The translations under genes were made by a program, and so were the position numbers. Positions 47,842 through 56,634 of a DNA stretch of 64,000 nucleotides are shown here, in pieces. Positions within the stretch are counted from its first letter, which is position 1; the number at the start of each line of letters is the position of its first letter. Source of the DNA: Flavobacteriales bacterium (GTDB taxonomy: Bacteria; Bacteroidota; Bacteroidia; CAIKAF01); NCBI GenBank assembly GCA_025451235.1, contig JANWKT010000013.1, forward strand, positions 81,317 to 145,316. The letters run 5' to 3'. Under the pieces are notes generated by a model. The model made no database searches, had not been told where the DNA came from, and saw only the letters and a program-made list of their open reading frames with translations.

Positions 47842-48267
47842 TTACCCTAGCATTTCCAAAATTTTCTTTGTTATTGACGGTGGGAATATGCTACAAGACT
47901 CCCAAGCTTCAAGTGTGATTCCTAGCTTTTTCAAATTAAGTTTGACATTATCTGATACGGTTTTGTAGTTTGATTCGCATCTTTTTGCTATTTCTTTTTT
48001 TGATAGGACAAATTCGATTTCCTCCCCTAGCGCCTGCTTTAGCCTAACAGTGTCCCAATATCTAAGCCATCTCATTTCATTCCATTTTTTATGTGGAATT
48101 TCATTTTGAAAAAATTTTATCCATTTAGATAAGGTAGGTCGAGTTATTCCGTAATCCTTGGCAATTGCTTCTTTTGATTTTCTGGTACTAACAAGTATGA
48201 AAAAAGAAATAATAAAAACGAGAAGAATTACTGCATTTTTGAATGAATCTGAGAGCTGCTTTTCCAT
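47842..48267 (-). CDS. Membrane-anchored helix-turn-helix protein
   Basis: N-terminal TM 'AVILLVFIISFFILV' then HTH 'KEAIAKDYGITRPTLSKWIKFF'. At the edge of the AT-rich island. Confidence 0.5.
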   Translation of the reverse strand: MEKQLSDSFKNAVILLVFIISFFILVSTRKSKEAIAKDYGITRPTLSKWIKFFQNEIPHKKWNEMRWLRYWDTVRLKQALGEEIEFVLSKKEIAKRCESNYKTVSDNVKLNLKKLGITLEAWESCSIFPPSITKKILEMLG

Positions 48268-48422
48268 ATAGTTTAATAATTTGCAACAAAGATAGATTCA
48301 GCCTAAAAATAGATCTAAACTTTTTGCAATATTCTCTGAATGACTATATAAATAATTGGTTGTGTGATATTTATATTCAACTAGCAGAATTAGCGTATTG
48401 TAACGAAGAATTATTTACCACG

Positions 48423-48474
48423 CTAGACCACCTTAGTCCGTTACGCTGCTAGGCTACCCAAGTCCGCTACGCTG
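48423..48474. repeat. Two adjacent imperfect 26-bp direct repeats
   Basis: ctagaccaccttagtccgttacgctg / ctaggctacccaagtccgctacgctg, followed by the palindrome ccgat-ttataaata-tcgg. Confidence 0.55.
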
Positions 48475-48625
48475 TTACCGATTTATAAATATCGGAACTT
48501 TAATTTAAACTACAATGATAGCGTGGCGTAAATTTCAAAATACGCCCAGGCGGGTTAGTAGCAGTACACTTTAAATTGGCCGTATCGCAGGTAATGTGGA
48601 AAATATACAGTTAGCTGTTGGCGTT

Positions 48626-49684
48626 TCATTTTTTAAAAGATTTTTGAAGTCTTTCAAATACTTTCTCCAAAAACAGATAGTTAACATCAAATTCATTTGA
48701 TACTGAGAATTCATAAAGTATATAATGATTCACCTCGTGCAAAATACTAATAGTGAATTGCATTGGATCAATGAATGCTTTTAATTCAATATCTTGATCT
48801 AACAATTTTGGTAAAACTATTTTGTTCCTAGTCATGAATTGTTGTAATCCATTGAAGTTTGAATGAATTTGTTCACTACATAGAACATAGTATGGTCGAA
48901 ATCTACTCATTTCAGCTCTTTCTTCAAGAACTCTAAAATCTGCTTTTTTATTTCCTAGAAACAAATCGTCCGCCCATCCAAAATCATTTTTTAAAAAATC
49001 CTTACCATATTTATTTCCGAGTGTCTCTTTAGCTTTATTAAGGTTTATCTCCGTTTTCTTTGGAAGGGGAGGAAACTTTAATGCTTTGTGGTTACTATTG
49101 TAGGCTGCTATCTTTCTTTGAGAATTTCTAATGGAATGCTCGTAGAATTTATTTGAAAGCTCAGCATTATTTTCAAGTGCCAAAACCAGTAGTATAATTG
49201 CATCTTCATACATTGCACGCCAAATAATCATAGCTCCATCTATATATCCACTTACTAATAAGTCAACAATTTCCTGAGCCCTTCTCAACATTAAGCCGTA
49301 TAAGGAAATGTTTATTTTTAAGGTACTGTCAATTCGCTTCCTATTTACCTTAACACTGATTTGCTCATACATATTTGCACAGGCTGTAATGTAAAGGATG
49401 AATGAAATGAAAGAGTCTCTATTATTCTGGACTATTGCACGTTGATTTTTGAAATGAACCTTTAAAAAGTCATCAATTTTAAAGTTGTGGTTTTCTAAAT
49501 AGGTATTTGTTAAAATATCCTCGTAGTCAGATATTATACCATCAAGATTTGATGCAATTTTCTGTGCTATTTCCTTTTCTGAAAGCTTGGATGTGCTAAT
49601 AAGATTAATTAATGTGCTATTAAGGATTTCGCTAAAGTCTTCAAAAAAGAGACCTTCTATTTCTACTTGTTTATATCGTCCCAA
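48626..49684 (-). CDS. Hypothetical protein (unknown family), last gene of 4-gene AT-rich operon
   Basis: 352 aa. No recognisable motif. Codon usage is AT-rich and unlike the flanking genes. Confidence 0.55.
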   Translation of the reverse strand: MGRYKQVEIEGLFFEDFSEILNSTLINLISTSKLSEKEIAQKIASNLDGIISDYEDILTNTYLENHNFKIDDFLKVHFKNQRAIVQNNRDSFISFILYITACANMYEQISVKVNRKRIDSTLKINISLYGLMLRRAQEIVDLLVSGYIDGAMIIWRAMYEDAIILLVLALENNAELSNKFYEHSIRNSQRKIAAYNSNHKALKFPPLPKKTEINLNKAKETLGNKYGKDFLKNDFGWADDLFLGNKKADFRVLEERAEMSRFRPYYVLCSEQIHSNFNGLQQFMTRNKIVLPKLLDQDIELKAFIDPMQFTISILHEVNHYILYEFSVSNEFDVNYLFLEKVFERLQKSFKK

Positions 49685-49709
49685 AATATAACCTTTTAAA
49701 TTGTGTTAT

Positions 49710-50480
49710 TCATTTTTTACCCTTTTCTAATAAAGGCAAAATAGTACTTTTTAATGTCAGCAGCATATACGGTCTTTTAACCTTTCCCTCTTTTAAATAT
49801 TTACTAATAACTCTTGTGACGCCTAAAAAGGATTCTTCAGTATGTTTTTTTGCGTTCAAATATTCCTTCCTTTTAATCTCCCTAGGGTATGACCAATTTG
49901 TACCATCAATATCAACATAAAAGCAATGTTCTTTAATTTGCTGAGCATTTGAAAGCCAATCTTTCTTCTCAATTATAGTTTTGCTCGGTGTTTTTGGTCC
50001 TAATTTTGATTGAATTTCTGCTGTTTGGGTTGCGTTTGCCATTGTCTGACCAATACGTTTAATGTAATTCTCAATCGATTCTCCTTCCCTAATCTGTAAA
50101 TTGTCTTTCTCTGTTAGAATAAAACTATTGATTTTACCATCGAAGTCAATTTTTTTAAGATTTCTGTGGATATGATTGAAAGCACTGGCAATATGAAGGC
50201 GAGTTTCGTGTATATTCTTATATCCTTTGACTTTTTTAAACCCGTAATCTATAAATTCTTTATCCCTAACCCCTATTAAGAAAAAAAATAAAGATTGCGC
50301 TTTTATTAATTCCTCAATCGTAAGCAACTTTAAAGCTGTTGCAAGCGGATATTTTTTCTTAGTTGCCAAGATATCGGCCGCATTGCTAAGATCTCTTGCA
50401 TTTGTATAAATAACCTCTAAGCCATCCTCGATAGTTTCTTCATCAAGCCTTAAAAGAATTTCATAACTAAGTTTCACCAT
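49710..50480 (-). CDS. AbiV-like (abortive infection) family protein, tentative
   Basis: N-terminal 'YTNARDLSNAADILATKKKYPLATALKLLTIEELIKAQSL' resembles the AbiV/Abi_2 N-terminal consensus (NA.rLl.DA..L...YpsA.aLailAiEE.gKa). Confidence 0.5.
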   Translation of the reverse strand: MVKLSYEILLRLDEETIEDGLEVIYTNARDLSNAADILATKKKYPLATALKLLTIEELIKAQSLFFFLIGVRDKEFIDYGFKKVKGYKNIHETRLHIASAFNHIHRNLKKIDFDGKINSFILTEKDNLQIREGESIENYIKRIGQTMANATQTAEIQSKLGPKTPSKTIIEKKDWLSNAQQIKEHCFYVDIDGTNWSYPREIKRKEYLNAKKHTEESFLGVTRVISKYLKEGKVKRPYMLLTLKSTILPLLEKGKK

Positions 50481-50506
50481 TACTTAAAAAATTAATATTT
50501 AAATAT

Positions 50507-51916
50507 TTAATATTTTGTTTTATTAGCATACCCATTAATTATTAGAGCAATCATAATCCAGCCAAAAAAGGTTTCACTTCCGACGAGCAATTTTATCTGG
50601 TTACTATATTCGGCTAAATTAACTCCACCTATTCGAACGAATCCAAAAATCGCATTATATAATCCGTCTATCCAGCTTTCGGAAATTCCCACCAAATAAT
50701 AAACAAAGGAGTAAGCAATAATGACCAATATTGAGTTATAAATAAGTCGATGGGGCTTCTCTCCAAATCCCCATAAAAGATAATTACATATGCCCAAGAA
50801 ACTCAAACGAATTTGTTGAATGCATCTAAAAAACTCCCTTTTCAATCGTAATAGTGTGCCTCGATTTTGTCTTCTGTTCTTACCTAGTTTATAATGGCCC
50901 CAAAAGGTATTAATACTTGCAATTGTGGAAAACAGTTCGAATTTACGTTCAAAGTAATGTGATTCCTTTGTTCGCTTTCTGTCTCCCTGTCTTGAATAGG
51001 CTATTCTGAATTTGACAAAATTGTCTGCAATATATCGATAAGTGCTTGCTTTAGTAGAGTAAAAATCTCTCTTCATAGGAATATATTTGACTTCCTCAAT
51101 ATAACTATTTTGCAAATCAATTCGATTCATTGAAATCTCGTCAAACGTAACATATCTTAATTCACTATTCTTACAAGTCATGCTCCACAAATTCCCATTA
51201 TGAAAATGCGTAGCGTATATTTCTGAACTATTTTCCAGTTTCAGATTTTGAAAATCACATTCAACAAGATTTAGGGAGCTTAATTTCCCATCATTAAGTC
51301 TAATATTGTGTGCATGAGCAAAATATATACTATGCATTATATTGCCGTGATCTGGACCTTCAATAGTCAAAAAATCCAAATTGGTAAAGTCAAGATTTCG
51401 TCTATTTATTCTGTACCCTCGTGTAATAGTTAAGCCACCAAGTTTTAGCACATAGTGACCCATCATTTTCCATTGGCAAAGATCTGGAACATCTGGAGCA
51501 TGTCCTGAACCATATAGCAACTTAGTATTCTTGCCCGGTAGGAAATGTCTAGTTTTATACTTTCTTTGACCCCATAAGATATATGGCGTAAATCTTTGAT
51601 AAATATGATTTTTTTCTTTAGCTCTCCTTTCGACTTCTTTTGCAGCCTGCGTTGATTGTGGATGAACAAAATAATATCGATCGTCTGGATGATTTTCCGA
51701 GAAATCGATTAAATATTTATCATATTCCCCATGAAATAATTCTCCAGGATTTCTGATTTTCACAAGGGTGTCAATCAGAAAATTATTTTCACTAAGCCAA
51801 TCGCCAAAACCCGGAAGATTTTTTTCGAAGGACATGAATAGTTTCGGCAAATCATTCTTTTCTCTCCAAAGATTGAATTCATCAGTAGGAAGGTCCCATA
51901 GTTCTTGAGGAGTCAT
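50507..51916 (-). CDS. Pentapeptide-repeat protein fused to C-terminal 2-TM pore-like (Ion_trans_2-like) domain
   Basis: 469 aa. Central pentapeptide-like repeats ('NLDFTNLDFLT', 'LSSLNLVECDFQNLKLENS', 'MNRIDLQNSYIEEV'). C-terminus has TM1 'LIYNSILVIIAYSFVYYLVGI', pore-helix-like 'WIDGLYNAIFGFVRIGGVN' (compare K-channel 'F.DALYFS.VT.TTVGYGD') and TM2 'FFGWIMIALIINGY'. Confidence 0.55.
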   Translation of the reverse strand: MTPQELWDLPTDEFNLWREKNDLPKLFMSFEKNLPGFGDWLSENNFLIDTLVKIRNPGELFHGEYDKYLIDFSENHPDDRYYFVHPQSTQAAKEVERRAKEKNHIYQRFTPYILWGQRKYKTRHFLPGKNTKLLYGSGHAPDVPDLCQWKMMGHYVLKLGGLTITRGYRINRRNLDFTNLDFLTIEGPDHGNIMHSIYFAHAHNIRLNDGKLSSLNLVECDFQNLKLENSSEIYATHFHNGNLWSMTCKNSELRYVTFDEISMNRIDLQNSYIEEVKYIPMKRDFYSTKASTYRYIADNFVKFRIAYSRQGDRKRTKESHYFERKFELFSTIASINTFWGHYKLGKNRRQNRGTLLRLKREFFRCIQQIRLSFLGICNYLLWGFGEKPHRLIYNSILVIIAYSFVYYLVGISESWIDGLYNAIFGFVRIGGVNLAEYSNQIKLLVGSETFFGWIMIALIINGYANKTKY

Positions 51917-51944
51917 TTAGCTGATTCTAACTTATTAATTAAGA

Positions 51945-52568
51945 CTATCTAATGCGTTTTTCGATAGGCATTCGAACTATTCTGGCCACACCTTTGTCAA
52001 ACTTGGCTAGAGAAATATTGGGAAAGGTAAGATAATCTTCCTTTCCTTCATTCTCATCGGTAATGCTACTATCATTTATCAGAGATTTTCCTTTGGTTTT
52101 AAAAGCACGATTATAATAAACCAAGCTGTCCCTGTTAGAATGAATCATTACCAAGATATTTTCCTTGGGAACTAGCTTTTCTATTTTAAAGTAACAGTCC
52201 TTAAAAAAAGGTCCATTTTCTTTGTATGTAAAGTCAATATTGCCATTAGGAGCTAGTTGTATTTGGTCCCCAACCAACATCTGAATATTTATTTCAATAT
52301 TATTAACCGTATTTTTTGATTGATTTGTCACTAAATAATTAGTTGTATAGTCCTGATTACTAATGGTTGGTTCTATTTCTACAATATCCAACGAACTTTT
52401 ATAATACCGTTCAGTGAAATATGGAGTTGTTACAACAAGTTGGACAATTGCTACAATTAGTGCAAGAATTGACAATATAAGTGAAACGTTAATTTTATTG
52501 TTCTGATTCTTTTCATGAAGTGCATCAGAAGTTTCAAATTTTATATTGGTCTTTTTCTTTTTACTCAT
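51945..52568 (-). CDS. Hypothetical single-pass membrane protein
   Basis: 207 aa. Basic N-terminus 'MSKKKKTNIKF' then TM 'VSLILSILALIVAIVQLVV'. Confidence 0.5.
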   Translation of the reverse strand: MSKKKKTNIKFETSDALHEKNQNNKINVSLILSILALIVAIVQLVVTTPYFTERYYKSSLDIVEIEPTISNQDYTTNYLVTNQSKNTVNNIEINIQMLVGDQIQLAPNGNIDFTYKENGPFFKDCYFKIEKLVPKENILVMIHSNRDSLVYYNRAFKTKGKSLINDSSITDENEGKEDYLTFPNISLAKFDKGVARIVRMPIEKRIR

Positions 52569-52702
52569 AGCCTACAGCTAACGTAACCGCATTTGCCCAC
52601 GGGCCGTTATTTAAAGGTAATAAACTTTACTCATTTCTCAAATGATAGCAGAGTGTAAATTATTCAAATACACCCAAGCGGTTTATGTTCTTAAAACATC
52701 AA

Positions 52703-53830
52703 TTAATCCGGAATGAAAGGCCTGTGGGCAGAATGGGAGTTAGGCAAAGTGAATTCTTGTTGTAATTTATCTGAGTAATCCCGAAGTCTAATAATCGATT
52801 TCAAAACAAATTTATTATCCGGCTCAACTGAACGCCAGAAGTGCAAATACCCAAACAATCTTTCAAGATATATTGGGTCAAATGAATTAATATGTTTTTG
52901 ATGTTCGAACAATCCTTTCGAAAGGACATAATGAACATTTTTTCTAACTTCTCGCTTAGCTTTTTTCGGAACAGTCATTGTTCCATTGGATATCGAAATC
53001 CCTGTAATAATTTTTTGATTTTTCTCACCAAGCAATTTTGTTTTGGGCTTATTTATATTAAATCCTTCTTCTTCGGTAATTTCTTCAATATATGTTGTCA
53101 TTTTAATTGGTATTGCACCCCCAGAAAAAGTAAAATCATCAGCATACCTGGTATAATTTAGTTTAAATTTATTTGCTAGTCCATTTAATCTTTGATCAAG
53201 TCTTTTTGCTATAATATTGCTTATCGCCGGACTTGTAGCTGCTCCTTGAGGTAGAGCTCGATTCAAACAACAAATTGCGGCTAAGTAGTAGGAGATTCTT
53301 TTTGTGTACCCCAAATTCCGAAAAATTGCAATTACTCGATTTATTTTTATGGATGGAAAAAAATTTTGAATATCCATTTTTAATACAAATTTGGTATTGA
53401 GATGTTCTTTAGCATTGTCAACAATTGAAGTATTTTTGATAAATCCCTTGGAACATTTATGTAATGGTTGGTGAATTAGGATGTTCTCGTAAATCCACTT
53501 TTGAGCATGCAATAAAACAGGATAAGGCGCTGAAATTATTCTTTGGCCTCCATTTCTTTTTGGAATCTCAAAAGTATAATAAAAGCTATTGGATTTCATC
53601 ACTATACTCGAAAGCACTTCCCTCTGAATGCCCAGTAATGAGGCTAAATGGTTAAAATCCAAAATTATTACGGTGTTATTCGAAATGAGTTTTTGCACAT
53701 AAATTGATAGTGCCTTTTGAGTTTTTTCACCTCTTACATTTTTCGAGATGAAATCAACCCATTTTTCGATTTGTATTTTTTTATCTTCTAGCATGGTAAT
53801 AAAAAATGAGGATGGGAAAACTACTTTCAA
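52703..53830 (-). CDS. Retron-type reverse transcriptase
   Basis: Collinear with Ec86 RT. 'RNGGQRIISAP' (RT1-2). 'KMDIQNFFPSI' (compare Ec86 NIDLEDFFPSL). 'LPQGAATSPAISN' (compare LPQGAPSSPKLAN). 'YTRYADDFTFSG' (YADD catalytic box). Retron thumb 'QKIITGISIS' (compare RKVTGLVIS). The annotated start is TTG; an in-frame ATG at ~53794 (MLEDKK...) is more likely. Confidence 0.9.
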   Translation of the reverse strand: MKVVFPSSFFITMLEDKKIQIEKWVDFISKNVRGEKTQKALSIYVQKLISNNTVIILDFNHLASLLGIQREVLSSIVMKSNSFYYTFEIPKRNGGQRIISAPYPVLLHAQKWIYENILIHQPLHKCSKGFIKNTSIVDNAKEHLNTKFVLKMDIQNFFPSIKINRVIAIFRNLGYTKRISYYLAAICCLNRALPQGAATSPAISNIIAKRLDQRLNGLANKFKLNYTRYADDFTFSGGAIPIKMTTYIEEITEEEGFNINKPKTKLLGEKNQKIITGISISNGTMTVPKKAKREVRKNVHYVLSKGLFEHQKHINSFDPIYLERLFGYLHFWRSVEPDNKFVLKSIIRLRDYSDKLQQEFTLPNSHSAHRPFIPD

Positions 53831-53974
53831 TGAAATTTATTCATACTACTAAATCCTACAACGTAGATTTAGTAGTGCAGTTCTGTTAGGAACTTCACTA
53901 GTGCCTTTTTCAGGTACTAGTGTGGTTAACCACAGCATTAATAAATGAGGCGAATACACCTCAATGTGCTAGTT
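53831..53974 (-). ncRNA. Candidate retron msr/msd non-coding RNA region
   Basis: A 144 nt gap (up to ~180 nt if the RT starts at 53794) between the WH gene stop and the RT. It holds hairpins actactaaatc-N10-gatttagtagt (53845-53876), cactagtgcc-ttttt-caggtactagtg (53896-53922) and the palindrome tggttaacca (53923-53932). The a1/a2 repeats were not resolved by eye. Confidence 0.5.
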
Positions 53975-54337
53975 TCATTTCCCATCCTCAATGTTTTTAA
54001 AAATTTCTTTATCCAAAGTTTTTCGATTTGGTATGTATAACTCATTTATACCCAAAATAGGTTGTTTCATGTTTTCAGGAATTAGTTTCCAGTATTTGAC
54101 GTTTTCACGTAAAAATATATATTTTCTATTCCCAAATATCCAATTGCGCCCATATTCGTTAAGGGTTATTTGATTACCACTAATAACTATTAACCCATTA
54201 TCTTCAAATTTTTGTATTGTTCTCGCAAGTTGAAAAGGAGATAGCTGGTATTTTTCATGAAAAAAATACAAATCCAAACTGTTTTGGGCATATAATTCTT
54301 TGAGGAACTCAATATCCTCGCTTAATAATTCTATCAT
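53975..54337 (-). CDS. Small winged-helix-like DNA-binding protein (retron accessory)
   Basis: 120 aa. 'LSPFQLARTIQKFEDNGLIVISGNQITL' has the HTH + wing pattern. A 4-bp overlap (ATGA) with the upstream PRTase-like gene suggests translational coupling. Confidence 0.6.
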   Translation of the reverse strand: MIELLSEDIEFLKELYAQNSLDLYFFHEKYQLSPFQLARTIQKFEDNGLIVISGNQITLNEYGRNWIFGNRKYIFLRENVKYWKLIPENMKQPILGINELYIPNRKTLDKEIFKNIEDGK

Positions 54338-55191
54338 ATCCGTCTAAAAAGTGTTTTTCTTTGAATCCCCCCTTTATAAAAGGGCCACCAAAATATTGGG
54401 AATACATTATTCGGAACATTATTGGCTTCGAAGCCAAATAGGGCTTCTGACCTTTTATATCCGAAATTGGGGAGTTTTCTACTCCCAATTTTATTCTTTA
54501 ATTTACTTTCAAGATTCTCCATGGATTTTTTAGCTGAAGGCCTGTTTTCTGCCTCCATTATCTCACTAATCCCTTTCTTCAACCAAAAAACTGAGTAATA
54601 TTCCATGTACAATTTATCTAATACATCTTTGGAAAACTCCATAGCGGCTAGGCTAATAGTTCTAACGGTTACATTGGTAAGTTGGCGTTTTTCTATTGTT
54701 GAACGCATGTATTTTACTTTTCGCTCAATTGTATCACCTGTTCCAATGAAGTCGTCCGTTAGTATAACATTTGAATTGTCTGGAATTTCATTAGCTCCAA
54801 TCGGTAACGAGTTAAAAAAATTAGATTCCTTCCAATTCATAGAGAATTTATTTTTTAGACATTGTATAATACTTTGGGATCCGTCTGGGTTTTTATCGTC
54901 ACACGTAGCAATAAGAAAAGTACTTTCTGAAGTTAAACCCCAATTTGTTTCGATTTGAGCTGCAATGCTCTTACCTGCCTCATTTAATGTTTGTCCATCA
55001 ACGAAGGAAAAGTTCTTTATTAGGAATTCAATTAAATCTTTTTGGTCTTTATTATCCGATAGACACCATAATTCAAAGAGTGCTTCTGGCTCATATGAAA
55101 GCCACTTGTACTCTTTGTGTAATTTAGTTAAAGTGACAAAATCGTTAACGTCAATTTTGCCAGATGCTCTATTTACAATCTCTTCATTCAT
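54334..55191 (-). CDS. Phosphoribosyltransferase (PRTase)-like protein (retron effector candidate)
   Basis: 285 aa. PRPP-binding-type motif 'VILTDDFIGTGDTI' (compare 'VLLVDDVITTGST'). Confidence 0.65.
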   Translation of the reverse strand: MNEEIVNRASGKIDVNDFVTLTKLHKEYKWLSYEPEALFELWCLSDNKDQKDLIEFLIKNFSFVDGQTLNEAGKSIAAQIETNWGLTSESTFLIATCDDKNPDGSQSIIQCLKNKFSMNWKESNFFNSLPIGANEIPDNSNVILTDDFIGTGDTIERKVKYMRSTIEKRQLTNVTVRTISLAAMEFSKDVLDKLYMEYYSVFWLKKGISEIMEAENRPSAKKSMENLESKLKNKIGSRKLPNFGYKRSEALFGFEANNVPNNVFPIFWWPFYKGGIQRKTLFRRI

Positions 55192-55339
55192 TCTTTATCA
55201 TTTTGCCTAACTACGGATTACCGTAATCATACAAACGTTTACAAACCTCTATTTTCGTTTGTAAGCACTTGTATAATGGCTTTCCTATATCAATAGTATA
55301 GAATAAAGAGCAAATATAAAAGCAGGGAGGCATCCGTAT

Positions 55340-55379
55340 TTTCCCGGATACCTCTACCTAATGTTGGGTATCCGGGAAA
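55340..55379. promoter_or_regulatory. 13-bp perfect inverted repeat upstream of retron operon (operator or terminator of the upstream gene)
   Basis: tttcccggatacc-N14-ggtatccgggaaa. A Bacteroidetes-type -7 box candidate TAtaTTTG (minus strand, complement of 55311-55318) lies between it and the PRTase start. Confidence 0.4.
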
Positions 55380-55422
55380 TATGGATGGGATCCAGGCCGG
55401 GGCGGCTTGGGAATAGAAGTTG

Positions 55423-56634
55423 CTATTCAGGACAGTTGGCTACACAAACCTCCTGCGTGATGCCGTAAAGAATGGTGAGCTTACCGGTCATATATTTTTG
55501 ACTGGTAGCCAGGTAGCAATCCAAAGATAAGGTACCATCATTTTCCAAAATGGTTCTTTTAAACTTAAATTCGGCTAAACCTTTGGTAGAGGTGTAGTAG
55601 CAACTAAATATAACAGATTCAGGATTTTTTAGTTTTGTCTTTACTACAAAATTAATTTTATAAGGACTTTTTTGGTTGGGGAATTTTTGCGTGCCTATCA
55701 GCTCACCCTCTAATGTAGTCACTTTTAACCAGTTTTTTGGCAGGTTAATTTCAATGTTGCATTCATACGTCATGTTAATGATCCTGGTGACGGTCACTGG
55801 ATCTTTTTCAATGGCTGGAATGTTTATAGGAATAATGTTATAACCCTCATCCAAATCAACAATCACAAACGCTTTATAGGGATCTTTTCTTTTGAAAGTT
55901 AATGTATACCTTTCACCATACTCGATCTTTTTTCCTTCTATTCTGTCGTTTATTAATACCAGATTTTCCGAAAAGGAGATATCTCTTACTTTTACTTTGT
56001 CTCCATTGTTTCTAAATGGGTTGGTCTTTAACTCAAAGAATACGGTTACAGTACTGTCCGATTGTCCCAGTAATTCGAGATACGGGATATCGTTCGTTAT
56101 TTTTATGCATTCCGTCCAGGCATTTAATGAATTTTCAACATCTTCACTGCGGGTATAGGTTTCGTTTAATTCAATTTTTTCATTGTAACTAAGTGAATAA
56201 TCTATTTTGGTTTTATACTTTTTAAATATACTCTTCACTTTTGATTTATTGGAACCCCAATTAAATGCACCAAAATCAGGAACACTAAACCCTGCCGAGG
56301 AACTTCTCCTGTTTTGAAGATCTTCCTGTGAGGAGGATTCATACAGGTAATTCAGTTTTTCTAAATAATCCTTATCCGTTTTCAAGGATAGTTTCTGGTA
56401 AACAACGGAGAAAGCCGCATCACAGGAACCTATAAATGCTTTATTGGTTTCAAATGATAAGGAGTCTGATACCTGGTTTTTGTTGGATCCGTCCTCCGGC
56501 ATGATTACAAACTCTACAAATGCGTCTTTAACAACCGAATCTTGAATTGCCTTTTCATCCTTTTTTACCGTCTTGGAGCCACAGCTGGATAAAAATGCAG
56601 TTAATACAAGGATCAAGAAAAAATAATTTTTCAT
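55423..56634 (-). CDS. Hypothetical lipoprotein
   Basis: Leader 'MKNYFFLILVLTAFLSSCGSKTV'. 403 aa. AT-rich codon usage. Confidence 0.6.
   Translation of the reverse strand: MKNYFFLILVLTAFLSSCGSKTVKKDEKAIQDSVVKDAFVEFVIMPEDGSNKNQVSDSLSFETNKAFIGSCDAAFSVVYQKLSLKTDKDYLEKLNYLYESSSQEDLQNRRSSSAGFSVPDFGAFNWGSNKSKVKSIFKKYKTKIDYSLSYNEKIELNETYTRSEDVENSLNAWTECIKITNDIPYLELLGQSDSTVTVFFELKTNPFRNNGDKVKVRDISFSENLVLINDRIEGKKIEYGERYTLTFKRKDPYKAFVIVDLDEGYNIIPINIPAIEKDPVTVTRIINMTYECNIEINLPKNWLKVTTLEGELIGTQKFPNQKSPYKINFVVKTKLKNPESVIFSCYYTSTKGLAEFKFKRTILENDGTLSLDCYLATSQKYMTGKLTILYGITQEVCVANCPE

Follow-up and report, generated by a model that had tools for sequence, protein, structure and literature searches.

A type III-A2 retron with separate PRTase-like and winged-helix proteins, predicted from sequence on a Bacteroidota chromosome

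At the sequence level, a compact and self-contained cassette of ~2.5 kb on the minus strand of the window, the whole 64,000-nt stretch of Flavobacteriales DNA that was analyzed, is well supported as an intact type III-A2 retron on a Bacteroidota chromosome. In minus-strand order, it encodes a PRTase-like protein of 285 aa and a winged-helix (WH) protein of 120 aa, followed by a gap rich in hairpins and then by a retron reverse transcriptase (RT), and all the sequence features of this four-element layout that had been described in a first-pass annotation were found. Very probably, the observations are jointly best explained by a III-A2 retron with an RT probably of clade 9, in which a PRTase effector would be held by msDNA and would consume PRPP once activated by phage. 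The locus is also well supported as an ordinary further example of a subtype that is already known: III-A2 was catalogued in 2020 (PMC7736814), and III-A2 RT and ncRNA pairs, one of them from Bacteroidota, have already been tested experimentally in a retron census (PMC10849725). The locus would be picked up automatically by standard annotation tools, PADLOC among them, and it opens no new question and overturns nothing. Its main elements are as follows.

54334-55191, minus strand: PRTase-like effector gene, 285 aa (PADLOC, Pfam PRTase-CE, predicted fold)
53975-54337, minus strand: WH protein gene, 120 aa (PADLOC WH_III-A, predicted wHTH fold)
53803-53992, minus strand: retron ncRNA (msr-msd), 190 nt (CM, fold, covariation, census homology)
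52703-53794, minus strand: retron RT gene, 363 aa from the ATG at 53794 (PADLOC, NCBIfam, structure, motifs)
55311-55318, minus strand: candidate Bacteroidota -7 box TATATTTG, 119 nt before the PRTase start codon ATG (weakly supported)

All three proteins are matched by type III-A retron models of PADLOC (PRTase E=1e-87, WH 4e-17, RT 6e-133), in agreement with the type III architecture (PRTase, WH, ncRNA and RT) initially proposed for the locus, and Pfam matches among them include PRTase-CE and RVT_1. The same cassette recurs, between flanks that are unrelated, in ~35 loci of several phyla; a metagenome scan with the single RT gave 4 loci, and close relatives were gathered through exact-protein look-ups. 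Subtyping from the numbering of the PADLOC models was dropped as contradictory, the best model being the second in the list for the RT and the first for the WH protein, and the subtype was settled from the census supplement (PMC10849725, supplementary files 1 and 3). The PRTase and WH protein are encoded by separate ORFs (285 and 120 aa), which does not fit III-A3, and the ncRNA profile has no match (E <= 10) to the three Bacteroidetes III-A1 census ncRNAs, which does not fit III-A1. As in III-A2, the winged-helix DNA-binding domain belongs to a protein of its own, encoded downstream.

The RT is matched by the PADLOC RT_III-A model PDLC02943 (E=5.8e-133, 441 bits) and by the NCBIfam retron St85 family (250.5 bits, cut-off 235), and scores 56 bits against a group II maturase model for which 300 are needed; the protein matches models of retrons rather than those of group II introns, DGRs or Abi RTs. 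Its closest solved structure is the Ec86 RT (E=2.6e-44), and the Ec86-like motifs first noticed in the sequence (FFPS, LPQGAxxSP, YxRYADD and VTG/ITG) were all recovered, as NFFPS, LPQGAATSP, YTRYADD and IITG. Residues N127-A128-x-x-H131, Y217ADD220 and I262-x-T264-G265 show no or almost no variation among 20 homologues, and the retron motifs NAxxH and ITG together with the YADD active site place the enzyme in the retron lineage. The RT probably belongs to clade 9, to which the closest solved RT, that of Ec86, belongs and to which the census table assigns the 66%-identical RT of Xanthomarina (there classed as III-A2). The gene had been read as encoding 375 aa from a TTG (52703-53830, minus strand). 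This ORF exists and its retron identity holds, but the ATG giving 363 aa is preferred as the start, because the TTG ORF would run through the a2 arm of the ncRNA and homologues, which have this start in common, align at the ATG. The 363-aa form is the exact protein in NCBI.

The 285-aa protein carries the PRPP-binding-loop motif VILTDDFIGTGDT, recognized from the outset as PRPP-binding-like, and structure prediction shows that it adopts a PRTase fold. The key residues D146, D147, G150 and G152 (DD-x-G-x-G) are invariant in 44 homologues, as is G244...P260NNxFP265, whose spacing (Gx15PNNxxP) is slightly different from the published Gx14PNNxP. The loop, the G...PNN motif in this variant spacing and the PRTase_III-A match (1e-87) mark it as a type III-A PRTase, best matched in PADLOC by a 271-position stand-alone model rather than those of 368 or 393 positions. 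The WH gene overlaps the PRTase gene by 4 bp (ATGA), as had been noted, and always lies directly downstream of it in relatives. Its product matches PADLOC WH_III-A (PDLC02975, E=3.7e-17). For this protein, described initially as HTH plus wing, modeling shows a winged-helix fold: in the AF2 model, residues 1-75 form a confident H-b-H-H-b-b fold, with a low-confidence tail (76-120), and MarR-family wHTH proteins top the Foldseek matches. The tail is conserved as LYxPxRxxxD...IEDGK.

Between the WH and RT genes lies a gap of 144 nt (TTG start) or 180 nt (ATG start), so that both lengths given earlier were reproduced according to the RT start chosen. Its description as packed with hairpins is borne out by folding far beyond chance and by covariation. 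The folding energy of a 199-nt region is -70.7 kcal/mol, compared with -37.1 +/- 4.2 for shuffles (z = -8.0; 0/200 shuffles as good). In the 53-pair model, 26 pairs show compensatory changes and 96.5% of cells are paired, against 1-9 pairs and 36-48% in slid controls. CM R1 gives 203 bits on the sense strand and 30.5 bits on the antisense strand, and in every PRTase-positive locus it finds the ncRNA immediately 5' of the RT gene. A Rfam search (E <= 10) over 51500-56500 returned chance miRNA-like matches only and no retron ncRNA family. The a1/a2 repeats and a candidate for the branching G, both looked for by folding, were found together with a covarying msr/msd fold; the a1/a2 stem is bipartite (12 + 5 bp), covaries and is followed by an invariant G, as in retron ncRNAs.

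53979-53990, minus strand: a1 outer arm TGAGGATGGGAA, pairing with 53807-53818 (inverted repeat; 6/12 pairs covary)
53975-53978, minus strand: a1 bulge ATGA, 4 nt, holding the WH stop TGA (53975-53977)
53970-53974, minus strand: a1 inner arm AACTA, pairing with TAGTT at 53819-53823
53969, minus strand: candidate branching G (priming 2'-OH), in CTAGCAC, invariant and directly 3' of the inner arm
53928-53968, minus strand: msr, predicted not to be reverse-transcribed (boundary inferred from census RT-DNA 3' ends of 1429, 1450 and 1453)
53947-53962 and 53927-53940, minus strand: msr hairpins H1 and H2
53825-53936, minus strand: predicted msd template (homology transfer from sequenced III-A2 RT-DNAs)
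53898-53920, 53877-53896, 53845-53876 and 53830-53844, minus strand: msd hairpins H3, H4, H5 and H6
53819-53823, minus strand: a2 inner arm TAGTT, pairing with the a1 inner arm (register test)
53807-53818, minus strand: a2 outer arm TTCCCATCCTCA, pairing with the a1 outer arm (inverted repeat, covariation)

For the inner arms, the RNAalifold register ACU/AGU was replaced by AACUA/UAGUU, which alone shows compensatory changes (38 sequences tested for register, 94% paired; AT>GC three times, CG>TA once, TA>AT and AT>TA twice each). G53969 is invariant in 38/38 sense-strand ncRNAs, and its context CTAG-C/T-A is also found in census III-A2 ncRNAs with sequenced RT-DNA. H1 is conserved as GAGGUG/CGCCUC with AU>GC covariation, and H3, H4 and H5 covary. 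A hairpin UGUGG-UUAA-CCACA was rejected as window-only and unconserved in relatives; the conserved TAACCA block is better explained by a position close to the RT-DNA 3' end. The putative msd boundaries were transferred by homology from relatives: RT-DNA starts opposite the nucleotide 5' of G-TAGxx and stops ~8 nt 5' of TAACCA in 1450 and 1453, and stops at AACCAC in 1429. The msd is thereby predicted to yield RT-DNA of about 103-112 nt, RT-DNA ends being, according to the census authors, unpredictable from sequence alone (PMC10849725).

Among relatives, Mestre-1467 of Xanthomarina gelatinilytica (Bacteroidetes; clade 9, III-A2; PMC10849725) has the same gene order in the same phylum. Its census entry matches locus L003 at 180/182 positions, and the proteins of L003 are 66% (RT), 60% (PRTase) and 49% (WH) identical to those of the window. 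The two ncRNAs are identical at 155/182 positions (85%) and have in common the a1/a2 layout, the G context, H1 and the TAACCA blocks, but species and genomic site differ, and H3-H5 differ by compensatory changes. This identity and the profile matches to census III-A2 ncRNAs (1467 5.6e-54, 1429 4e-8, 1450 4e-7, 1453 2e-5) place the window ncRNA in the III-A2 structural family. Of Mestre-1467, only the RT and ncRNA have been tested, as a human-cell editor, with 17.3% precise editing, 149x Eco1 (PMC10849725); this templated editing requires RT-DNA. The III-A2 terminals with sequenced RT-DNA are 1429 (Enterobacter bugandensis), 1450 (Pseudomonas sp.) and 1453 (P. aeruginosa). These proteobacterial retrons and L018 of Pseudomonas peli, the species of Retron-Ppe1, have a split PRTase, WH, ncRNA and RT like the window; L018 matches the same PADLOC sub-models, and the CM scores 41.5 bits on it. 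Blocks in common are CTAG(C/T)AC-GTTGGAGTG...CGCTCC, TAACCA and GAAGGTAG. However, RT identity to the window is ~41-45% (L018, other Pseudomonas/Buttiauxella loci), the msd is longer (RT-DNA of 130-168 nt), the a1/a2 sequences are unrelated, and the WH stop usually lies before a1, not in the bulge. III-A1 retrons of Bacteroidetes (terminals 370, 376 and 397; Retron-Sda1 RT) also have a split PRTase and WH (PMC7736814), but their RTs belong to clade 2 and their ncRNAs are unrelated to that of the window (no profile match, E <= 10). III-A2 pairs are among the best census human-cell editors, terminal 1429 reaching 179x Eco1 (PMC10849725); the earlier statement that type III retrons have little or no characterization, and none in Bacteroidota, is outdated, since III-A2 RT and ncRNA pairs, including the Bacteroidota pair, have been tested as editors.

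The action of the PRTase-like effector had likewise been called unknown, but that of such effectors has been studied in the sister subtype III-A3 with Retron-Eco11 (PMC12746101). This is the sole III-A retron with a studied defense mechanism, in which phage helicases are the trigger and PRPP depletion is associated; PRPP was the only metabolite significantly changed, in dependence on the PRTase active site, and the evidence is modest (~50% decrease, P = 0.04) (PMC12746101). Retron-Eco11 has a clade 9 RT, as the window probably does, and like the window it has a PRTase-like effector with PRPP loop and retron-specific PNN motif, a WH module, and an ncRNA overlapping the effector 3' end with the stop codon in the bulge of a bipartite a1/a2 stem (PMC12746101); its msd is ~101 nt. 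However, its PRTase and WH are fused in one 413-aa effector (cluster 67_3), whereas the window has two proteins and a PRTase of another cluster. Its C-terminal peptide is YYPxxLRxx as against the WH tail given above, its host is E. coli, and the triggers UvsW and D10 are known for III-A3 only. Retron-Eco1/Ec86 (type II-A3) has a clade 9 RT, the closest solved one, a branching G after the a1 stem in a TAGC context, and an effector whose WH lobe also touches msDNA, but in place of a PRTase this effector has an NDT-like nucleosidase, and the ncRNA has one long msd hairpin, unlike that of the window. Retron-Bpu1 (III-A) failed to protect E. coli, and transformation with Retron-Ppe1, which was toxic, proved impossible (PMC12548924); no demonstration of defense by any III-A2 (split-effector) retron was found in the literature searched.

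Judging from sequenced III-A2 RT-DNAs, the RT would bind the msr hairpins, prime from the 2'-OH of G53969 and copy the template from 53825 to about 53927-53936, giving a branched msDNA of about 103-112 nt with three or four DNA hairpins. As in Retron-Eco11 and Ec86, the RT-msDNA may assemble with the effector and keep it inactive. The separate WH protein would be the counterpart of the WH lobe at the C-terminus of the fused effector in Eco11, and probably contacts msDNA or RT via both its wHTH core and its flexible C-terminal tail. Activation of the PRTase would come from a phage factor acting on msDNA (UvsW/D10-type helicases for III-A3), and the enzyme, as suggested by Retron-Eco11, would then consume PRPP, disturb nucleotide supply and abort infection.

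Within the same III-A2 identity, it is conceivable, though unlikely, that the PRTase-like effector kills by some means other than bulk depletion of PRPP, such as the synthesis of a toxic nucleotide-like product, the modification of a nucleobase, nucleotide or nucleic acid, or a combination of PRTase and pyrophosphatase chemistry as in ShosT. Depletion is favored by the intact and invariant PRPP-binding loop and by the active-site-dependent change in PRPP alone among Eco11 metabolites (PMC12746101). A role of the 120-aa protein mainly as a transcriptional autorepressor of the operon, and not as an msDNA- or RT-binding effector subunit, is improbable. It would agree with the MarR-like fold and with an imperfect 21-nt inverted repeat at 55226-55277, downstream of the candidate -7 box and upstream of the PRTase ATG, but this repeat and the whole upstream region are unconserved in relatives. 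Moreover, the WH co-occurs strictly with PRTase and RT, is fused to the PRTase in subtypes A3-A5, and has a conserved tail resembling the Eco11 C-terminal peptide, and the equivalent lobe of Ec86 touches msDNA (PMC12746101), all of which argues for an effector subunit. The 13-bp perfect palindrome (55340-55352 / 55367-55379, 14-nt loop) and TAnnTTTG box reported upstream of the operon are both present, but neither the palindrome nor the position of the box is conserved upstream of homologous operons. The window contains 71 copies of TAnnTTTG where chance would give 75, so that the motif is not evidence by itself; a -7-type box is found in several relatives, but 21-33 nt before the ATG. Because of this absent conservation, the palindrome and the second inverted repeat were rejected as conserved regulatory elements, and the palindrome and -7 box are window-specific and outside the conserved system.

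The locus lies within a low-GC island, adjoining AbiV, and neighboring genes encode T9SS sorting domains, which assign the DNA to Bacteroidota. Adjacent minus-strand genes (207-aa TM, 469-aa pentapeptide/TM and AbiV-like HEPN) are on the same strand, tightly packed downstream of the RT and in the same island, which would suit a larger system including the retron. However, none of the three adjoins the retron in any of 80 related loci, close relatives are flanked by unrelated genes, e.g. metG and serS in Flavobacterium, and AbiV is a stand-alone defense gene family. Since they do not co-occur with the retron, TM207, pentapeptide/TM and AbiV were excluded from the system, and this reading is effectively refuted. 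That only a remnant survives here, inactive or domesticated and without a defense role, is also highly improbable: the surroundings showed no mobile-element or phage genes and Bacteroides has stand-alone RT and ncRNA relatives lacking an effector, but all three ORFs are intact, the catalytic and family-specific residues are all conserved, the ncRNA scores like those of relatives (203 bits vs 154-214), and the locus adjoins AbiV in its low-GC island.

The overlap of WH gene and ncRNA may be functional, a speculative proposal given a small chance of being right. The last five WH codons (IEDGK) double as the outer arm of a1, with the stop codon falling in the inter-arm bulge, 8 nt before the priming G, a position (G-8) kept in 14/15 close relatives. 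A ribosome finishing the WH would melt the a1/a2 helix needed by the RT for priming, so that WH translation and msDNA synthesis would be mutually exclusive on one transcript; if true, this could set the adaptor-protein-to-msDNA stoichiometry. As part of the same proposal, the unfused WH might act as a portable adaptor for msDNA through which retrons exchange effectors, with parallels in type IX Kva2, where the WH is separate, and in Retron-Sda1, where DUF3037 has a C-terminus that is WH-like.

Altogether, the locus adds a well-annotated Bacteroidota split-effector III-A2 retron with a covariation-backed ncRNA model, a candidate for the branching G and predictions of where msr and msd begin and end. 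Because III-A2 RT and ncRNA pairs ranked among the best census human-cell editors, the window retron, with 66% RT and 85% ncRNA identity to its Xanthomarina relative, is a plausible editor candidate. It could also be a test case for III-A2 defense, its triggers and the role of the WH protein in a Flavobacteriia host.

The retron locus lies on the minus strand, and the ORF coordinates of the first-pass annotation were reproduced by an ORF scan.

Open reading frames of the retron locus (ORF scan)
54334..55191, minus strand, PRTase-like ORF, 285 aa
53975..54337, minus strand, winged-helix (WH) ORF, 120 aa
52703..53830, minus strand, reverse transcriptase (RT) ORF, 375 aa from TTG

The 4-bp overlap of the PRTase-like and WH ORFs (ATGA) was verified on the sequence. 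Read from the ATG at 53794, a start common to homologues, the RT has 363 aa and is identical to a protein at NCBI, so the WH-RT gap measures 180 nt and not 144 nt. The three proteins all match PADLOC type III-A retron models (RT_III-A, E = 5.8e-133; WH_III-A, 3.7e-17; PRTase_III-A, 1.1e-87), and Pfam matches include RVT_1 for the RT and PRTase-CE (79 bits vs a cut-off of 27). The motifs FFPS, LPQGAATSP, YTRYADD, IITG and VILTDDFIGTGDT were all found as quoted. The RT is of retron and not of group II intron type, as had been proposed: it scores above the cut-off of the NCBIfam retron St85 RT family, whereas the NCBIfam group II intron maturase model reaches 56 bits of the 300 needed. Across 20 aligned RT homologues, the retron-specific NAxxH, the active-site YADD and the thumb ITG are invariant or nearly so, and the nearest solved RT is Ec86 (Retron-Eco1; E = 2.6e-44). 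In the predicted structure of the WH protein, residues 1-75 form a confident wHTH fold followed by a low-confidence tail, and MarR-type regulators are its structural matches.

No Rfam family matches the ncRNA region. The hairpin-rich gap was borne out by its fold, and the region has a1/a2 repeats that form a covarying closing stem, followed by an invariant G as candidate branching G. The folding energy of 53800-53998 (minus strand) is -70.7 kcal/mol compared with -37.1 +/- 4.2 for shuffled sequences (z = -8.0), and the 5' arm of the closing inverted repeat falls within the last WH codons. In a covariation alignment of 15 homologous loci, the RNAalifold consensus contains 53 pairs, and compensatory double changes occur in 26 of these (1-9 in controls with the partners shifted by 1-3 columns); paired cells amount to 96.5% (36-48% in the shifted controls), and none of 500 shuffles matched any observed covariation measure. 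A covariance model built on the trimmed alignment scores 203 bits on the sense strand of the window vs 30.5 bits on the antisense strand, and in each PRTase-positive locus tested, that of Pseudomonas peli among them, it detects a full-length homologue immediately upstream of the RT. When 38 sequences are compared, the inner segment of the closing stem fits AACUA/UAGUU best, a register with compensatory changes (AT>GC three times, CG>TA once, TA>AT twice, AT>TA twice), and a G follows the inner arm in all 38. The RNAalifold register for this arm was dropped because its changes are wobbles or mismatches only.

Anatomy of the ncRNA
53979-53990, minus strand, a1 outer arm
53975-53978, minus strand, 4-nt bulge with the WH stop codon
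53970-53974, minus strand, a1 inner arm, AACTA
53969, minus strand, candidate branching G
53947-53962, minus strand, hairpin H1
53927-53940, minus strand, hairpin H2
53898-53920, minus strand, hairpin H3
53877-53896, minus strand, hairpin H4
53845-53876, minus strand, hairpin H5
53830-53844, minus strand, hairpin H6
53819-53823, minus strand, a2 inner arm, TAGTT
53807-53818, minus strand, a2 outer arm

In two relatives, public gene calls of 59 aa (L094:2315-2494) and 39 aa (L096:2313-2432) cross this region; they are almost certainly spurious calls sitting on the msr-msd RNA.

Because the a1 arm also encodes the conserved WH C-terminus (...KNIEDGK*), positions 53975-53995 (minus strand) are constrained both as coding sequence and as RNA. 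Of 15 close relatives, 14 have the WH stop codon at G-8, in the stem bulge. A stop-codon-in-bulge layout has likewise been reported for Retron-Eco11, but it is variable among distant members, where the stop is at G-9 to G-11 in six and elsewhere in the remainder, usually ahead of a1 or at its beginning. In an Endomicrobiaceae locus (L014:5827-5996), the ORF entering a1 has 407 codons and terminates 4 nt short of the conserved G, which suggests a fused, A3-like PRTase-WH effector joined to an ncRNA of the window's family.

Type III-A has been divided into A1-A5, with A1 in RT clade 2 and A2 in RT clade 9, and with a separate WH protein in A1 and A2 and a fused one in A3 (Mestre et al.; PMC7736814). 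In an experimental retron census, terminal 1467, from Xanthomarina gelatinilytica (Bacteroidetes), is listed as III-A2, clade 9 (PMC10849725 supplement). Its ncRNA is identical to that of the genomic X. gelatinilytica locus (L003) at 180 of 182 positions and to the window's at 155 of 182, while the proteins of L003 share 66% (RT), 60% (PRTase) and 49% (WH) identity with those of the window. An ncRNA-family profile built without L003 matches the III-A2 terminals 1467 (5.6e-54), 1429 (4e-8), 1450 (4e-7) and 1453 (2e-5), and none of three Bacteroidetes III-A1 census ncRNAs. By sequence comparison the locus is therefore of type III-A2; placement of its RT in clade 9 is indicated indirectly, by Ec86 as nearest solved RT and by the clade 9 listing of the 66%-identical relative. 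The two differences between terminal 1467 and L003:5802-5991 both lie in H4 (GTTCC>GTTTC, GGAAC>GGAAG) and could stem from strain variation or from a change made in synthesis.

RT-DNA has been sequenced empirically for three III-A2 retrons, terminals 1429, 1450 and 1453 (PMC10849725). When it is mapped to the ncRNA, synthesis in 1450 and 1453 begins opposite the nucleotide immediately 5' to G-UAGxx (a2 inner arm) and stops ~8 nt 5' of a conserved UAACCA/UAGCCA block; in 1429 it stops at AACCAC. By analogy, the window template would run from 53825 up to 53927-53936, giving a predicted RT-DNA of 103-112 nt that starts 5'-TTTCAATGAAATTTATTCATAC, to be read with the census authors' statement that sequence alone does not predict RT-DNA ends (PMC10849725). 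Its predicted 5' end is TTTCAATGAAATT... (template start 53825) and its 3' end would fall within ...GTGTGGTT(AACCACAGC) (53927-53936); the molecule would hold H3-H6, with H1 and H2 staying in the msr.

The homologue scan, with one genome per species, gave 80 loci with related RTs. The order PRTase-WH-gap-RT is kept in ~35 of them, from Bacteroidota, Gammaproteobacteria, Alphaproteobacteria, Endomicrobia and Cloacimonadota. In none of the 80 loci does the retron stand beside any of the three genes that follow the RT in the window, and the flanks of close relatives are unrelated (for instance metG and serS, in Flavobacterium sp. WC2409); the system is thus a ~2.5-kb four-element cassette. Elsewhere the flanking genes include other defence genes, e.g. 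HNH, AbiE, nSTAND/NACHT and AAA_15. The window retron lies within a low-GC stretch (~47.8-56.6 kb) that also holds AbiV and DUF5677 genes. A search for tRNA genes gave none, and the ORFs scanned showed no integrase domain. Nearby genes carry T9SS sorting domains, which assign the genome to Bacteroidota.

Genes on the RT side of the cassette
47842-48267, minus strand, HTH protein, low-GC stretch
48626-49684, minus strand, DUF5677, low-GC stretch
49710-50480, minus strand, AbiV-type (AbiV-like) HEPN, Pfam 1.9e-18, downstream of the RT
50507-51916, minus strand, pentapeptide-repeat protein, 469 aa, hydrophobic C-terminus/TM, downstream of the RT
51945-52568, minus strand, TM protein, 207 aa, downstream of the RT

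The HTH, DUF5677 and AbiV-type HEPN genes (47842-50480) are likely other defence genes; across 47842-52568 (minus strand), no gene has a PADLOC match or co-occurs with the retron elsewhere.

RTs 44-52% identical to that of the window occur in ~45 Bacteroides, Dysgonomonas and Tannerella species; for that of B. hominis (L027:5615-6885), the best PADLOC model is RT_III-A (345 bits). Where searched, these loci have a shorter ncRNA match (117-161 nt) just upstream of the RT, and PRTase or WH genes are absent beside it. The B. hominis cassette sits between DUF5686 and the housekeeping genes rpsA and RNase Z-like MBL, and DUF5686 is kept upstream of the cassette in 14 loci. These loci look like stand-alone msr-msd-RT cassettes, with a common chromosomal site in at least those 14.

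Loci with these related RTs
L007, L019, L024, L026, L027, L031, L032, L036-L046, L049-L054, L057-L059, L062, L064-L068, L070-L076, L079, L080

Upstream of the operon, the palindrome and -7 box noted in the first-pass annotation are both present, but in relatives the former is absent and the position of the latter is not kept. The palindrome (13/13 perfect, 14-nt loop, 55340-55352/55367-55379) starts 43 nt past the stop of a 403-aa lipoprotein-like gene (55423-56634) and does not occur upstream of homologous operons; it is probably the terminator hairpin of that gene and not a retron element. The box, TATATTTG at 55311-55318 (minus strand), is 119 nt before the PRTase ATG, compared with 21-33 nt for TAnnTTTG boxes in several relatives, and the motif is as frequent in the window as expected by chance. 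Between it and the ATG lies a second inverted repeat (55226-55277; 21 nt, 81% complementary, 10-nt spacer), which is not conserved upstream of homologous operons. A motif directly before the ATG, ~TTA(T/G)GCAAAATG(A/T)AAA(A/G)A, is shared by the window (55192-55211, minus strand) and four relatives (L001, L003, L087, L092), whose regions further upstream are unrelated to the window's; the motif could serve in translation initiation or as part of the 5' UTR.

Among III-A retrons, only Retron-Eco11 (III-A3) has had its defence mechanism studied: it needs RT, ncRNA including the branching G, and the PRTase effector; effector and RT bind only with msDNA present; effector toxicity is triggered by the phage helicases UvsW (T4) and D10 (T5); and PRPP drops by ~50% (PMC12746101). 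The window locus would work by the same logic, every biochemical step being carried over by homology, and its separate WH protein would take the role of the C-terminal WH lobe of the Eco11 effector. For split III-A retrons, direct data concern RT-DNA production and editing (PMC10849725). Retron-Ppe1 makes RT-DNA in its own host; transformation of E. coli with it was not possible, presumably owing to toxicity there; Retron-Bpu1 makes RT-DNA, yet gives no defence in E. coli (PMC12548924).

Altogether, the reading as a type III retron (PRTase, WH, ncRNA and RT) was right and withstood all the refutation tests posed with it, on RT affiliation, PRTase assignment and ncRNA fold. The high interest first assigned to the locus stemmed from the belief that the class was uncharacterised and unknown in Bacteroidota. 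Three bodies of work contradict this belief: the classification of 2020, the Retron-Eco11 study and the census, with its Bacteroidota III-A2 retron whose ncRNA is 85% identical to the window's (PMC10849725). The retron class itself is already known and the window locus adds one more member, in which the overlap of the a1 arm with WH codons and the stop codon in the bulge are a small structural point worth noting.
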